A stretch of 39,905 nucleotides of DNA from an uncultured Clostridia bacterium. GTDB lineage: Bacteria > Bacillota > Clostridia > Christensenellales > UBA1242. The stretch is from assembly GCA_944372675.1 (NCBI GenBank), contig CALVZW010000003.1, positions 1-39,905 on the forward strand. Reading direction: 5' to 3'. Below, piece by piece: positions 33,218-39,905 of the stretch (position 1 is the stretch's first letter; the number at the start of each line of letters is the position of its first letter). A program made the position numbers and the translations under genes. The notes beneath the pieces are model-generated. The model did no database searches. It saw only the letters and a list, made by a program, of their open reading frames with translations, and was not told where the DNA came from.

Positions 33218-36200
33218 TTATTCATTTGTGTATTTATAAATTGCTGATATCTTATTGCCGACTTTGTTTGTTGTTAAACTCTTTCCCTTGCCCTGCTTTT
33301 TATCTGGGAAAAATTCCTTGTAAGTTTTTTTAATAAAATTGTCATTACCAGCAAATTTTATAACATATTCAGCATCCTTGTCCGCTATGTCAACAAACAA
33401 TATTTCATCATTATCTGCTAGTGCAAACACTTTTGCTCCTTTTCGTGCTCTTTGCGATAATTCAATGTTCCCAACATTAAATCTTTTACCAAGTCCTTTC
33501 TTTGTAGCAAGAATAAGTTCGCCACTTAAGCCCATTAGCCCTGCATATACTAAATGGTCATTGTCATTTAAATTGATACCTTTAACACCTTGGCTAATTC
33601 TTCCGCTTAAAGGTATTGAACTTACTTCACAATTAAGAGCCATACCAGATTTTGATATCATCAGTAAAGTTTTGTTTGCTTTAGATTTAATAACATTTAT
33701 TACTTCATCATTATCTTTAAGTTTAATTGCTAAATATTTTTGCTTAGCAACATCATATTCAATTAAACTTGTTCTCTTTAATAAACCAAATTTAGTTACA
33801 AAAATTAATTCACTCTTGTCTTTTTTGTCAATTTCAAACATCGCCAATATTTTTTCATTAACATCTAATTCTTTGCAAACAGTTCTTACCCCTACACCTT
33901 TATCACGCCATTTTGCTTCTTTTATGTCTTCAACTGCAATTCGGCAAGCATTTCCCTTATCGGTAAAAGCAACCAAAATTTTATCAGTAGTAGTCTTTAA
34001 AATGTTGTAATGCAATTCATTTTCTGTCATTTGCGAATTGTATTCTTTGATAGTGGTTTCAAAGTGTTTAGGTTGCATTCTTTTTATTGTTCCATTTTGC
34101 GTCAAAGCAACTATTGTGTCTTCAACAACTTTGTTGGCTTCCAAAATACTTTCTATGTCAATTTCTCCAAAACTTTTAACAATTTTTGTTAATCTTGGCA
34201 TACTATATTTTCTTCGTATTTCCAACATTTCTTCTTTAATTACTTCAAGTTGAAGTTTTTTAGAATTTAAAATTGCAGTCAATTTTTCAATTAATATTTT
34301 TAATTCATTTATTTCTTGTTCAATTTTGTAAACTTCAAGACTTGTTAATCTTGCTAAACGCATATCCAAAATTGCTTGTGCTTGTTTTTCAGATAATAAA
34401 AATCTTTGTCTTAAGCGTACTTTTGCCTCAGTAGTATTTGGGCTTGTTTTAATAATAGCGACAACTTCATCAATGTTAACAATTGCAATATGAAGCCCTT
34501 CTAAAATATGCATTCTTTCTTTTGCATTATTTAAATCAAATCTTGTTCTTCTAACAATTATACTAACTTGGTAATTAAGATAATATTTTAAAATTTCCAT
34601 TAAACCTAATTGTTTAGGCTTACCATCAGCAATTGCAACCATATTTATACCAAAAGTTGACTGCAAATCGCTGTACTTATATAATAAATTGAGAATATCA
34701 TTAGCATTGTATCCCGCCTTAACAGTAATGACTGCTCTTGTTCCACTGCGGTCAGATTCGTCTTTAATGTCTTGAATCCCTAACAACGCACCTTTCTTAT
34801 CTTCACGAATATCGGCAATTTTTGAAAGTAAAGAAGATTTATTCTTTTGATAAGGTATTTCAGTAATTACAATATTTGTCTTGCCATTGCCAGCATCTTC
34901 AAAATGAGTTTTAGCACGAATTGTAATTTTACCCCTACCCGTTTCATAGGCTTGATATAACTCATCTGTTGAAATGATTGCACCAGTTGGAAAATCTGGC
35001 CCTTTAATAATTTTCATCATTTCTTTTAAACTAATTGAAGGATGTTCAATCAAAGCAATTACACCATCAATAACTTCGTTTAAGTTGTGTGGCGGGATGT
35101 TAGTAGCAAGTCCAACCGCAATACCAACCGCACCATTAACAAGTAAATTTGGGAATCTCCCAGGAAGTGTATTTGGTTCTTTAAGAGTATCGTCAAAGTT
35201 AAAACTCCACTCAACAGTGTCTTTTTCTAAATCCCTTAAAAGTTCCATAGCAAGTGGCGCTAATTTTGCTTCGGTATATCTCATTGCCGCCGCACTATCA
35301 CCATCAACTGAACCGAAATTACCGTGTCCCTGCACAAGTATACCACGCATATTAAATGGTTGAGCCATTCTTACCATAGCATCATAAACCGATGTATCAC
35401 CGTGCGGATGATATTTACCTAAACAATCACCAACAATTCTAGCACATTTTCGATATTGTTTGTCTGGCGTCATTCCCAATTCAAGCATTGTATATAAAAT
35501 TCTTCTTTGAACTGGTTTTAAACCATCTTCAACTCTAGGAAGTGCCCTATCAAGCAAGACGAACTCGCTGTAAGGAATCATAGAATTATGAAGCACTTCG
35601 TCAATAGATTGAACTATCAAACCGCCGTCTATTTTCCCTCCGCCTTTCATTGTTTTATCTTGTTTCGGCTCTTGGTCGTTATAAGCCATTTTCTTTACCT
35701 CTTTTTTTATTTCGTTAGTAATAGAACTTTGTTTTACCTTATCTATTCTATTTTTGTTTTCAAAATTTTCTTTCTTTTCAAAATTAATATTTTCATTAAA
35801 ATTATCTAGATTTTCTTCGTCTTTAACATTAGTTTCAACATTTAAGTTTTCTTCGTAATTATTAAAATTTTCATTTTGCTTTATATAATATTTATCAGCA
35901 CTCTCTCTCTGCTCATTTTCAAAATTACTATTCTTATCTTCACTTTCAAAAACAAACTCATTTATACTTTCGTCTTCCTGAGTATATTCAACTTGATTAA
36001 TTTTTTTATATTCATTGTTATCATTGCTTTCAGTATTTTCTATCTCATTTACTTCTCTATCATTATTTTCTAAAAAGTTTTTTAACTTATGTGATGCACC
36101 TTGTTTAGTTATCTTATTTTCTTCTATGTTGTTGTCTTTATATTTATCTAAATTTGTTTTATCATTATGTTGACTAATATCTTCTTTTTCATTGTTATTT

Positions 36201-36382
36201 TGATTATTTGGTTTTACATTTTCATAGTAACTAAATAAATCTAATTGTCCCTCAATGGGTTTGTTTGTAAACTCTTCACTTTCTTCATCATCCAAATTCC
36301 TTTGAGGTAATTCAAATATTGACATTTGCCCCTCAATAGGTTCATTTGTGAATTCTTCATCCTCTTCGTCAAAATAAGACAC
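33218..36382 (-). CDS. parC: Type IIA topoisomerase subunit A (ParC-like) with ~230-aa acidic N-terminal extension
   Basis: [23 protein letters not shown], catalytic AAMRYTE, beta-pinwheel CTD without a canonical GyrA box; GTG start after AGGAG. Family is certain; ParC versus GyrA is inferred. Confidence 0.8.
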
Positions 36383-36424
36383 AACATTCTCCTAAACATT
36401 ATTATAAGTTAAAAAACTAAACTG

Positions 36425-38392
36425 TTATTTAATTTTCTTCAATTTATCAAATTCATCAGGTTCTTTGTTAAAGTTTGCGTATTCCGATATATATTGCTTT
36501 CTTGACTCAATGTCATCACCCATTAAAGTAGTTATTAATTTTTCAGCCTCAGCAGCATCTTCAATTGATACTCTAATCATAGTTCTATTTTTAGGGTCCA
36601 TTGTAGTTTCCCATAGTTGTTCAGGGTTCATTTCACCAAGACCTTTATATCTTTGAATATCATATCCCTTACCAAATTCGTCAGCATATTGTCTTAACTG
36701 GTCATCAGAGTAAGCATATTTAACTTCGTTTTTCTTAGATATTTTGTATAAAGGTGGCACTCCTATATAGACATGTCCATCTATGATTAGTTGTTTCATA
36801 TATCTATAAAAGAATGTCAAAAGAATAGACCTTATGTGTGCACCGTCTTGGTCAGCATCTGCTAATATGATAACTTTATCAAATTTCAAACTTTCTACAT
36901 CAAAATCATCACCAATGCCTGCACCCAATGCTGTTATGATTGAACGGAATTCGTCATTTTGCAAAACTTGTTCCAATCTTTTCTTTTCAACATTTAGTGG
37001 CTTTCCTCTTAGTGGCAATATTGCTTGAAAAGACCTATCTCTGCCCATCTTAGCACTACCGCCAGCACTATCACCTTCAACAATATATAATTCATTCTTT
37101 TTAGCATCTCGCCCACTACACGAAGCAAGTTTACCTATTAAAGCAGTAACTTCAAGACTATTCTTTGCCCTTGTAATTTCTTTAGCCTTTTTTGATGCTA
37201 ATCTCGCACTCGCCGCTAATTTGCCTTTGTTAATAATTGCTTCCAAAATCTTTTTATTATCTGCCTTTTCCATAATGGCTAGCAAATGCGTATATACTAA
37301 ATTATCAACTTCAGTTTTGGCTTCAGGATTACCAAGTTTTGTCTTTGTTTGTCCTTCAAACTGAACATTCTTCATTTTAATAGATAAAACCGCTGTAATG
37401 CCTTCACGGTAATCTTCACCCATTAAATTAGTATCTTTTTCTTTTAGCAACCCCGCTTCTCTACCCGCTTCATTAAATACTTTAGTTAAAGCAGTCTTAA
37501 ATCCTGTCTCGTGCGTTCCACCTTCACTGGTTGAAATATTGTTTACATAACTAAAAATGTTTTCAACATAAGCATCAGTGTATTGAATTGCACATTCAAG
37601 TTTTACAATGTCAGATTGTGCTTCAAAATAAATTGGAGTTGAATATAAAGCATTTTTGCCTTCGTTTAAATAAGAAACAAAGTCTTTAATACCGCCGTCA
37701 TACTTGTAAATTCGTTTTAAGCAAGAACCATCTTCATTAATTACATTTTCATCAATTAATTCAATAGTTGCACCTTTGTTTAAAAATGCGTATTCTTTTA
37801 ATCTTTTTGCAATAACTTCGCCACTAAAATTAATCGTTTCAAAAATGCGTGCATCAGGTTTAAAATGAACAAAAGTACCCTTGTCGGAAGTACTCCCTAA
37901 ACAACGCAAAGGACTCTTAACCGTTCCACCAAGAATTTTACCTTTTGAATTTGGAACTGAATGAAATTGTATTTTATATTTTTTACCATTCCTATTAGTA
38001 ATTACATCCAACCATTCACTTAAAGCATTTGTAACGGATGCACCCACTCCGTGCAAACCGCCCGAAAAAGCATAGTTATCATTGTTAAACTTTCCGCCTG
38101 CGTGTAATTGCGTAAATACAACTTCAACACCAGATATTCCTAATTGTGGATGTTTATCAACAGGTATACCTCTACCATTATCTTCAACTGAAACCGTACC
38201 GTCTTTATATAAAGTAACAATAATTTTATTACCATAACCATTGGCAATTTCATCCATTGAATTATCTACTATTTCCCATAGTAAGTGATGAAGTCCTTTT
38301 GCACTAGTCGTACCAATATACATACCAGGGCGTAATCTAACCGCCTCAAGACCTTCCAAAACAACTATATCTTTTGAATTATACTCTTTCAA
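36425..38392 (-). CDS. parE: Type IIA topoisomerase subunit B (ParE-like)
   Basis: EIVDNSMDE, DNGRGIP, GGLHGVGAS, EGDSAGG, PLRGK, DADQDG, RYKGLGEM; TTG start after GGAGG. ParE versus GyrB is inferred from the partner gene. Confidence 0.8.
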   Translation of the reverse strand: MKEYNSKDIVVLEGLEAVRLRPGMYIGTTSAKGLHHLLWEIVDNSMDEIANGYGNKIIVTLYKDGTVSVEDNGRGIPVDKHPQLGISGVEVVFTQLHAGGKFNNDNYAFSGGLHGVGASVTNALSEWLDVITNRNGKKYKIQFHSVPNSKGKILGGTVKSPLRCLGSTSDKGTFVHFKPDARIFETINFSGEVIAKRLKEYAFLNKGATIELIDENVINEDGSCLKRIYKYDGGIKDFVSYLNEGKNALYSTPIYFEAQSDIVKLECAIQYTDAYVENIFSYVNNISTSEGGTHETGFKTALTKVFNEAGREAGLLKEKDTNLMGEDYREGITAVLSIKMKNVQFEGQTKTKLGNPEAKTEVDNLVYTHLLAIMEKADNKKILEAIINKGKLAASARLASKKAKEITRAKNSLEVTALIGKLASCSGRDAKKNELYIVEGDSAGGSAKMGRDRSFQAILPLRGKPLNVEKKRLEQVLQNDEFRSIITALGAGIGDDFDVESLKFDKVIILADADQDGAHIRSILLTFFYRYMKQLIIDGHVYIGVPPLYKISKKNEVKYAYSDDQLRQYADEFGKGYDIQRYKGLGEMNPEQLWETTMDPKNRTMIRVSIEDAAEAEKLITTLMGDDIESRKQYISEYANFNKEPDEFDKLKKIK

Positions 38393-38449: not shown

Positions 38450-38776
38450 AAAGATTTAACACACATTTTTTGCAATTTATATTTAAAAATTTTGTTATAC
38501 TTAATTTGGAAAAATTTGTTAATTTATTATTTTAAATAAAATATAAGTAAAATTTTACATATAAATTACATAAATAAAACGAAAAACATTGCCATTTATC
38601 TAAACAAAGGAATAATGATTTATTCATAGCATAATTTTTTTATTAGCAAAATTTAAAACTAAAAATTTAAAAAAATTTATAATTTCACTAAATATATTGA
38701 TTTCACTAAATTATCATTATAAAATGTCCTATTTTAAATTTTATTTTGATAAATATTTATAATAAATAATCAAATT

Positions 38777-38810
38777 AAAAAATGCTTATGATAGCATATA
38801 CCATAAGCAC
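38777..38810 (-). terminator. Intrinsic terminator of the surface protein gene
   Basis: Minus strand GUGCUUAUGGUA-UAUGC-UAUCAUAAGCAU-UUUUU. Confidence 0.75.
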
Positions 38811-38850
38811 TAAAAAATTTTTCCTTTATATCTTTAAAATAATCAATTAA

Positions 38851-39905
38851 TTATATCACAACACTAATGTTAGGTATTCCACCTCCAGTTATGGTTATAG
38901 TGTGACTCATATTAATATCATTCGGTGTTGTAAACACATAATAATCATTTATTGTACTTCCATTCCCACCATAAGTAATACCCCAAGTATATGGTCGAGA
39001 AACTGTTATTGTGTATGTTGTATTCTTTTCTAACTCTAGTTTTATTGTAGTTGTTCCCGAAACCGCAATTTGTTGCACATCTGTATAATTATCTTTTGTT
39101 CCATTTAAGATATTAAATATTATATGTCTGTCGAAATTTGTTGGCACATCTAATGTAATTGTTATTGTTGTTGTGCAAGTCAATTTCTCCCATACTGCAT
39201 ATAAATTTATTACCCCATTATGTGTTGTAGTTAAATTTTGTACCACCTGATTATTACCATAAACTACACCACCGTTTGTTGTTGTTGCCCAACCTTTAAA
39301 CTGATAGTACTTATACGCAAATGTGTTTACCGTTAATGCCTTTTGCTCATTGTAAGTAAATGTTAGGTCAGCCATACTACTTGCACCTGTTGAAATTGCT
39401 CCATTTGGTGCGTTAGCATTAAATTTTACCGTGTATGTATTTATTGTCCATTGTGCAGTTAGCGTTAAATTACTATTGCCACTATATGTTGCACCTGCAT
39501 CATAGTTGTTACTATCATTACCGCTCCAATGCGTAAAATGATATCCCGTTTTTGTAAAACTAAAACTACTATTAGTTATATCTAAAATTGTTGCAGGGGT
39601 TCCGCTGTTTATTAATGCAGTTGTATATGGATTACCTGTTGCACCATCTCCCGCATAATATGTAATCTTATAACCTTTTTCAACCATATTTGCAACTACA
39701 TTTAAATCACTTGTAATATTATTTACTACAACAACTACACTACCATTATTTATGTGATATGAAAATTTACAATTATTTGTTGTGTAAAATGTATTTTGTT
39801 CTTTTCCACTTAATAATATTGTTTCATTATTATTAAATGTAAGAGAATTTAATTCATAATTATCTGTATTAAATGTATATGTTATTGTTGCAGTACCAGA
39901 ATCTT
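38851..39905 (-). CDS. InlB B-repeat (Listeria-Bacteroides repeat) surface protein, 5' end outside the window
   Basis: Two repeats: ITYYAGDG..FTKTGYHFTHW..LTLTAQW and YTVKFNAN..YYQFKGW..INLYAVW. The frame has no stop from 39687 to the window edge, so the listed ATG is internal. Confidence 0.85.
   Translation of the reverse strand, partial: DSGTATITYTFNTDNYELNSLTFNNNETILLSGKEQNTFYTTNNCKFSYHINNGSVVVVVNNITSDLNVVANMVEKGYKITYYAGDGATGNPYTTALINSGTPATILDITNSSFSFTKTGYHFTHWSGNDSNNYDAGATYSGNSNLTLTAQWTINTYTVKFNANAPNGAISTGASSMADLTFTYNEQKALTVNTFAYKYYQFKGWATTTNGGVVYGNNQVVQNLTTTHNGVINLYAVWEKLTCTTTITITLDVPTNFDRHIIFNILNGTKDNYTDVQQIAVSGTTTIKLELEKNTTYTITVSRPYTWGITYGGNGSTINDYYVFTTPNDINMSHTITITGGGIPNISVVI

Follow-up and report, generated by a model that had tools for sequence, protein, structure and literature searches.

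Clients of the bacterial sliding clamp DnaN can hold their clamp-binding motif at a free disordered end, as Hda does with QLSLPL in its disordered N-terminus and Pol II and Pol IV do with motifs at the C-terminus, often after a Gly and between acidic flanks (PMC11139829). The clamp motif is defined there as Q-phi-x-[L/M]-[F/L] or Q-phi-x-[L/M]-x-[F/L], and QLDLF is the strongest-binding consensus. Decatenating topoisomerases are guided by other partners. In E. coli, topoisomerase IV (topo IV) is positioned on the chromosome by MukBEF and by XerCD/MatP (PMC7614492, PMC3950513, PMC5061553), and topoisomerase III (topo III), in a complex with DnaX of the clamp loader, is coupled to the replisome and acts on precatenanes (PMC7614492). 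Here we describe a ParC-like subunit of a type IIA topoisomerase with a long N-terminal arm and two clamp-like motifs at the tip of that arm. It is encoded in a stretch of 39,905 nucleotides from an uncultured Clostridia bacterium that belongs to a group of gut Clostridia with small genomes (Christensenellales, UBA1242; assembly GCA_944372675.1, contig CALVZW010000003.1, positions 1 to 39,905), the whole of which is called the window below.

As in Hda, Pol II and Pol IV, a motif of the Q-phi-x-L-F type stands at a free, probably disordered end of the ParC-like protein. Unlike in those clients, the motifs belong to the subunit of a type IIA topoisomerase and are in tandem on a leash of ~180 residues, and the binding is predicted. 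As for E. coli topo IV with MukBEF and XerCD/MatP, a partner would position the decatenase on the chromosome, but the MukBEF route runs through the folded C-terminal domain of ParC and the hinge of MukB, an SMC protein, whereas an N-terminal linear motif and the clamp are proposed here. The topo III-DnaX pair shares with this proposal the coupling of a decatenating topoisomerase to the replisome; it differs in being a type IA enzyme with a clamp-loader partner, for which the accessible text describes no linear motif. Both sites of a clamp dimer can be filled at once by the motifs of one complex (PMC11139829), and the arm may make the same two-pocket use of one clamp dimer as Pol III alpha and epsilon or the 'toolbelt' arrangement. 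Unlike in Pol III alpha and epsilon, both of its motifs lie on a single chain, 26–27 residues apart, and would bridge one ring. The PIP-box pattern has the spacing Q-x-x-phi-x-x-aromatic/phi, which is formally shared by the second arm motif with its tail (QLDLFSYY) and by heptads in sister genera; unlike the clamp of the eukaryotic PCNA partners, the bacterial clamp is DnaN.

A literature search made outside supplements and subscription journals, on partly accessible texts, found no report of a clamp-binding type IIA topoisomerase in bacteria. An earlier note on this DNA, made from its letters alone, had likewise known of no described clamp-binding arm on such an enzyme. The words 'topoisomerase' and 'gyrase' have 0 occurrences each in the 2024 clamp review (PMC11139829). 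A table of clamp partners includes Topo I and Topo II-alpha for PCNA and, in its accessible text, no topoisomerase for the bacterial clamp (PMC9690074), and the accessible parts of a 2026 review on replication in E. coli and B. subtilis contain nothing on a contact between the clamp and topo IV (PMC13220808).

The arm of the ParC-like protein and its tip

The features of the locus, all on the minus strand, are as follows.

33218 to 36382, minus strand: long ParC-like open reading frame (ORF), arm plus core, 1054 aa (ORF list, Pfam, 0 stops)
36389 to 36393, minus strand: Shine-Dalgarno (SD) sequence AGGAG, 6-nt spacer to the GTG start of the long form
36314 to 36358, minus strand: tip module 1, 15 residues, codons 9–23; core QMSIF at 36328-36314
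36233 to 36277, minus strand: tip module 2, 15 residues, codons 36–50; core QLDLF at 36247-36233, followed by SYY
35690 to 36217, minus strand: acidic, N-rich low-complexity linker, codons 56–231 (composition, strain variants, AlphaFold2 confidence)
35687 to 35702, minus strand: in-frame SD-like AGAGGT (35702-35697), 7-nt spacer and ATG (35689-35687), the canonical ParC start
33218 to 35689, minus strand: ParC-like catalytic core and C-terminal beta-pinwheel, no GyrA box (Pfam, motif scan, NCBIfam NF004044)
36425 to 38392, minus strand: B subunit (ParE/GyrB-like), the next gene upstream within the operon, separated from the ParC-like ORF by 42 nt

The long form starts at a GTG (36382-36380), and its arm of 231 codons is an in-frame N-terminal fusion to a ParC-like core, the usual start of which is the ATG at 35689. 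The Pfam DNA_topoisoIV match begins only at residue 279, which places ~231 codons ahead of that ATG. Over the 693 nt of the arm (GC 0.24) the frame contains 0 stops and the other five frames contain 10–59; a stop-free arm arose in 0 of 20000 shuffles, and the analytic P is 4.9e-12.

The two tip modules are diverged copies of each other, 27 codons apart, ending in QMSIF and QLDLF. A repeat search returned them as direct repeats of 46 nt with 78% identity, 81 nt apart, and of the changes between the first 11 codons of the copies 5 are synonymous and 1 is non-synonymous (E to K). When the arm was used as a query, 8 of the 9 other genomes of the genus were matched and none of 31 genomes of other genera; the genus genome without a match (G007) is 90% complete. 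Seven of the matched genes were read, and eight loci were added from a collection of species genomes. Both motifs are kept in all nine species genomes that were read (the own genome and 8 others) and are found also in proteins P0014, P0016 and P0140. All 8 genus sequences of the alignment, and loci L081-L088, have GQMSIF without a change. In motif 2 the G-Q pair is invariant across the genus and the core reads QLDLF, QIDLL or QYS[LIM]F. The Q-to-Q spacing is 26–27 aa, and AGGAG or GGAG lies a few bases before a GTG or TTG start at the same place, in 8/8 genus genes. In P0140, a same-genus ParC of 1027 aa, module 2 is present once more as a degenerate third copy (QKLNLFEYYD) ~100 residues into the linker, which shows that the module is still being duplicated.

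A scan of a collection of species genomes for [IV][ED]GQMSIF gave 60 pattern matches, of which 8 were confirmed, all from this genus. A word search restricted to proteins of near and shorter length found 18 proteins of near length, all ParC-like, and among the shorter ones a single fragment of 185 aa that was 100% identical. In a profile search of 1.84 billion representatives there were 4 matches, two of which were ParC tips. A third match, an 1854-aa surface-repeat protein, was taken as spurious, as it matched on NKPI[DE]G alone.

The linker behaves differently from the tip. The 206 residues between motif 2 and the conserved core, of which ~25 lie beyond the internal ATG, consist of 23% D+E, 20% N and 15% K+R, and hydrophobic residues make up 19% of them vs 39% of the core. 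Between species the linker is unalignable, with a length of 97–271 aa and a net charge of −6 to −49 in the 8 genus genes. Only one weak 15-nt array was found when tandem repeats were sought in the linker. Strain variants were drawn from four metagenome runs. Among the variants listed, the tip (codons 1–55) has 6 synonymous and 1 non-synonymous (I43V), the linker (codons 56–231) has 5 synonymous and 18 non-synonymous, and the few core codons covered have 4 synonymous and 0 non-synonymous; tip and linker differ in this split with a Fisher p of 0.0045. The tip is constrained like the enzyme core, and the linker drifts yet never breaks the frame.

The earlier note had described a stop-free extension of 231 residues with a GTG start and an AGGAG ribosome-binding site (RBS), had set the repeats at 36358-36314 and 36277-36233 with the same codon differences between them, and had taken the arm as apparently translated and selected, with conserved motifs and a diverging linker among homologues as its test. 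The ORF reading and frame statistics agree with the extension, the repeat coordinates match exactly, and the codon comparison was reproduced. Translation and selection are borne out by the SD and start kept in 8/8 genus genes and by purifying selection on the tip, and conserved motifs beside a diverging linker were found in the 9/9 species genomes read.

At the junction of arm and core, an SD-like run (GAGG, GGGG or GGAG) is followed by an in-frame ATG in 8/8 genus genes (the others being L004-L010). In 7 of them the run lies 7–12 nt before the ATG, which precedes the conserved QSIDEV block by 23–26 codons; L006 has its ATG just 7 codons before this block, with GGAGG in front of it. The residues encoded at the junction SD differ among the genes (KEV, REG, KGV, KER, KEQ). 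The junction is thus conserved in nucleotides and not in amino acids, which suggests that a second, arm-less ParC isoform is made by internal initiation at the ancestral start.

The protein with the arm is predicted to be the A subunit of a topo IV-type enzyme, the second type IIA enzyme of its host and not of the supercoiling type. It matches DNA_topoisoIV (PF00521, E 8e-159, residues 279–719) and then DNA_gyraseA_C (PF03989, E 8e-30), and no GyrA box ([RK]GG.G), the role of which is stated in PMC7614492, was found in the entire protein. Two A-subunit genes are present in the host assembly (1.21 Mb, 96% complete). The one on contig C29, a paralogue, lies behind a gyrB-like frame, has a GyrA-box-like QNRGGVG and passes the gyrA equivalog (1169 > 902). 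A second gyrase was considered for the window ORF and was ruled out by the missing GyrA box and the true GyrA on contig C29. The window ORF did not pass the parC_Gpos equivalog (731.7, cut-off 813.25) or the gyrA equivalogs (828–852, cut-offs 877–902) and passes only the subfamily NF004044, 'DNA topoisomerase (ATP-hydrolyzing)' (764.6 > 654), so that the label given is 'ParC-like, second type IIA enzyme' and not that of a curated ParC. The same assembly contains one type IA topoisomerase gene (a 744-aa frame, G000:C66:572-1870, plus strand, locus L092), and with the type IA query used no separate topo III was detected in it.

The neighbouring B-subunit ORF has Pfam HATPase_c, DNA_gyraseB, Toprim and DNA_gyraseB_C; it passed the NCBIfam subfamily NF004189, and its gyrB and parE equivalog scores were under the cut-offs. 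Upstream of this parE-like gene, positions 38450-38900 of the window are very AT-rich (GC 0.14–0.17) and are probably the promoter region of the operon.

Several lines of evidence bear on the assembly. Thirteen of the 18 tip-bearing proteins are exactly 1054 aa long, each from a separate contig. Positions 35403-36700 are tiled by contigs from four runs (four studies, one of the runs sharing its study with a possible source sample) with no indel reported. Among the runs listed as carrying the sequence, none was of RNA. Contig pieces bridge both the parE/arm and the arm/core junctions, and no listed contig covers the whole 1301 nt. Misassembly or non-translation of the arm was rejected on the basis of the same-length proteins, the open-frame P, the bridging contigs and the selection. 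An arm-less allele was considered from joints in runs X5 and X10 which skip from 35527/8 to 36594-36628, and was rejected. Their sides are at most 36 letters long with 90% likeness, and they would delete parts of both conserved genes; the joints were taken as pieces of other organisms.

Clamp-like motifs in the arm and elsewhere in the genome

Motif 2, QLDLF, fits the published clamp definition exactly, and the earlier note had named QL[S/D]LF as the clamp-binding consensus, in keeping with QLDLF as the published highest-affinity form (PMC11139829). The own polymerases of the host were read in a six-frame translation of the genome (frames of at least 80 aa, matches judged by eye). Behind the HhH domain of the DnaE-type polymerase stands ESGQMSLFD, and behind the IMS_C (little-finger) domain of the Y-family polymerase stands FEQLSLFD, both where a clamp motif is expected in these clients. 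Among the genome matches listed, G-Q-phi-[SD]-phi-F occurs three times, two of them in the arm and one in DnaE. The tip motifs therefore resemble the genome's own polymerase clamp motifs at the level of sequence, down to the preceding Gly, and they are placed at an N-terminal tip in an acidic context of low hydrophobicity.

Clamp-like motifs were also seen in other proteins. A 190-aa frame (G000:C102:1640-2209, minus strand, L090) is bAvd-like (PF22296, E 7e-11) and has an N/E-rich N-terminal extension with YDQLNLFDD, a motif of the canonical clamp type. The bAvd family comprises accessory proteins of diversity-generating retroelements. As the reverse transcriptases of group II introns, and transposases, have been reported to be clamp partners, a clamp-tethered retroelement protein is conceivable for L090. 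A 425-aa frame with no Pfam match (G000:C8:659-1933, minus strand, L089) has KIQMSLFEED near its C-terminus, and its product is a further candidate clamp client. The DnaE-type polymerase itself (G000:C47:3-4040, minus strand, L074) has ~150 low-complexity residues at its N-terminus, with PHP from residue 154, so that disordered N-terminal inserts in replication proteins seem to be common in this genome.

Among the 4 matches of the tip profile was P0142, a stand-alone acidic ORF of 84 aa from gut-metagenome contigs (L093:4001-4255, plus strand), which has three DGQI[SN][LM]F motifs 24–30 residues apart. A relative is encoded at 107 loci, no viral contigs matched P0142, and its neighbours, named by eye, are deformylase-like, flavodoxin-like and Hsp20-like genes. 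P0142 could be a small multivalent clamp binder or a decoy.

Clamp docking weighed against other readings

We consider tethering to the clamp to be the best reading of the arm, and slightly lean towards it. The protein would expose a free N-terminal tip with tandem GQMSIF and GQLDLF, 27 residues apart, on a predicted disordered acidic spacer of ~180 residues. The tip motifs would plug into the hydrophobic pocket of DnaN, the beta-clamp, and as their spacing is fixed, the two motifs may fill both pockets of one clamp dimer. Clamps are reported to accumulate on DNA after synthesis (PMC4284645). The arm would tie the enzyme to DNA-loaded clamps that stay behind on newly copied DNA and would enrich the decatenase at the places where sister duplexes are intertwined and precatenanes form. 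The spacer would serve as a flexible leash, with a sequence that drifts and an acidic character of low hydrophobicity that is kept. An untethered short isoform is probably also made from the conserved internal RBS and ATG.

The complex was predicted with two copies of the cognate DnaN (G000:C15, L011:1501-2607; 368 aa, 116-row alignment) and tip residues 1–60 (8-row alignment). The fold scored 0.48 (runs 0.48, 0.51 and 0.47) and all three controls scored 0.00; at least 69% of contacts are common to the runs, and the pLDDT (predicted local distance difference test) of the partner is at least 55. In the calibration set, 58 of 80 solved complexes passed the mark, as did 2 of 110 mismatched pairs; just 7 of the solved complexes passed with scores of 0.60 or less, and so did both mismatches, a calibration which holds only roughly with our own alignments and two DnaN copies. 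The predicted complex thus gives weak support to a DnaN-tip contact. In an AlphaFold2 (AF2) monomer of residues 1–361, the blocks of the tip (residues 11–60) are at pLDDT 68–84 and the linker is mostly at 36–50.

The ParC-like N-termini were read in 59 family genomes of other genera. They are at least 100 aa long in 29 genomes, 23 of which have a tip motif, and shorter than 100 aa in 30, of which 4 have one; paired tip motifs stand 24–29 residues apart (differences taken by hand). Two sister genera with short ParC N-termini have canonical motifs, YGQINIFD and KQVNMFD. Beyond the family, in an order-wide sample of 100 genomes besides the own one, 3 of them of the same family, every other-family match listed was an ordinary frame of at most 900 aa, and the frames above 900 aa among the matches listed were the window's own (1057) and those of two family members, G076 (1021) and G049 (940). 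As far as these sequences go, the arm is a family-specific, patchy invention.

A number of these observations weigh against clamp docking. Motif 1, QMSIF, has I at position 4, where the strict definition has L/M. Most sister-genus tips read Q-phi-x-phi-[DE][DE]-phi (QIGIEEL, QICYDEL, QMGFDEF, QLSFDDL), outside the clamp definition, with an acidic fifth residue where the clamp motif needs F or L; such an acidic heptad was found in 25 of the 59 genomes and a strict clamp motif in just 5. The DnaE motifs are canonical in the five sister genera checked (GQFSLF in three, GQIDMF and GQITMF in the others), and noncanonical tips beside canonical DnaE motifs suggest that the ancestral tip may serve another partner. 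The arms of L064, L067, L068 and L050 (G011, G083, G074 and G041; 115–356 aa, very acidic and P/E-rich in three) begin with M[KNG][DE]FDDL[LI]D and have no Gln; from its sequence, this tip may be a truncated form of the family motif. Scores in the band of this fold are wrong in the majority of cases, save where the guess was already a likely one, and as clamp-peptide complexes are already solved, the pass may reflect motif likeness alone. The mean pLDDT of the AF2 model is 52 and its truncated core is at only 50–70, so that low values in the linker are weak evidence of disorder. The interpretation of the earlier note, an arm docked on clamps behind the fork, possibly bivalently, to remove precatenanes, is partly supported. 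The selected arm and the conserved motifs stood, and the polymerase-like spelling speaks for it; the sister heptads, the off-definition QMSIF and the fold, 0.48 over controls at 0.00 yet graded as weak support, leave the docking itself at the strength given above.

The alternative that survives best, though we think it unlikely to be the right one, is that the tip docks on a partner other than DnaN, such as SMC-ScpAB, DnaX, FtsK, ParE or the basic C-terminal domain of ParC itself, the clamp-like spelling in this genus being convergence or drift within a looser Q-phi-x-phi-x-x-phi motif. The predominance of the heptad over the strict motif in the 59 genomes, the canonical DnaE of the five genera and the Gln-less tips of four genomes would all fit this reading, and the recruiters known elsewhere are different proteins: topo IV is recruited through MukB and XerCD/MatP, topo III through DnaX (PMC7614492). 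Against it, the genus motifs match the own polymerase clamp motifs with the preceding Gly included, clean Q[IV]N[IM]F motifs are present in two other genera, and the fold with DnaN, the one partner modelled, is above its controls. The ancestral tip may have bound the clamp through a noncanonical motif of PIP-box-like spacing, sharpened later in this genus, or it may have bound something else.

It is improbable that the arm is in the main a disordered acidic tail of non-specific action, which mimics DNA, auto-regulates DNA capture or serves as a solubility tag, with a minor or structural role for the tip. Acidic tails have been described on gyrase A subunits, to which such a tail may be likened. 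The net charge and low hydrophobicity of the linker in 8/8 genus genes would suit it, as would the 6 of 29 long family arms without any Q motif and the low-complexity N-terminal stretch of the own DnaE. Charge alone, however, leaves the invariant G-Q-M-S-I-F, the 26–27-aa spacing and the tip-confined 6:1 synonymous excess unexplained, and an acidic tail is compatible with tethering and no replacement for it.

That the extension is not made at all, ParC starting at ATG 35689 and the upstream frame being an annotation or assembly artefact, is disfavoured as very improbable despite the good internal SD and ATG at the canonical start in 8/8 genus genes, since a chance open frame has P ~5e-12 and the frame is open in 9 species, the SD and start of the long form are kept, selection on the tip is purifying and independent contigs bridge both junctions without indels.

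Clamp tethering can also be put in a stronger form, which we regard as doubtful. The topo IV of this family would be a replisome-coupled decatenase locked bivalently on the clamp, the internal start would set the ratio of tethered to free enzyme, and the acidic heptad would represent an unrecognised, PIP-box-like class of bacterial clamp motif.

Possible meaning for replication-coupled unlinking

The arm bears on the way in which decatenases reach precatenanes behind the fork in bacteria other than E. coli; in E. coli itself, MukB, DnaX, XerCD and MatP are implicated. If clamp tethering is true, it would add a new enzyme class to the beta-clamp clients and would provide a simple, portable coupling of unlinking to replication. 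Such coupling is perhaps especially relevant in reduced genomes, the one here having 1.2 Mb and one type IA topoisomerase. With its canonical pentamers, acidic heptads, Gln-less tips and members with no arm, the family would offer a ready structure-function set for the specificity of clamp motifs.

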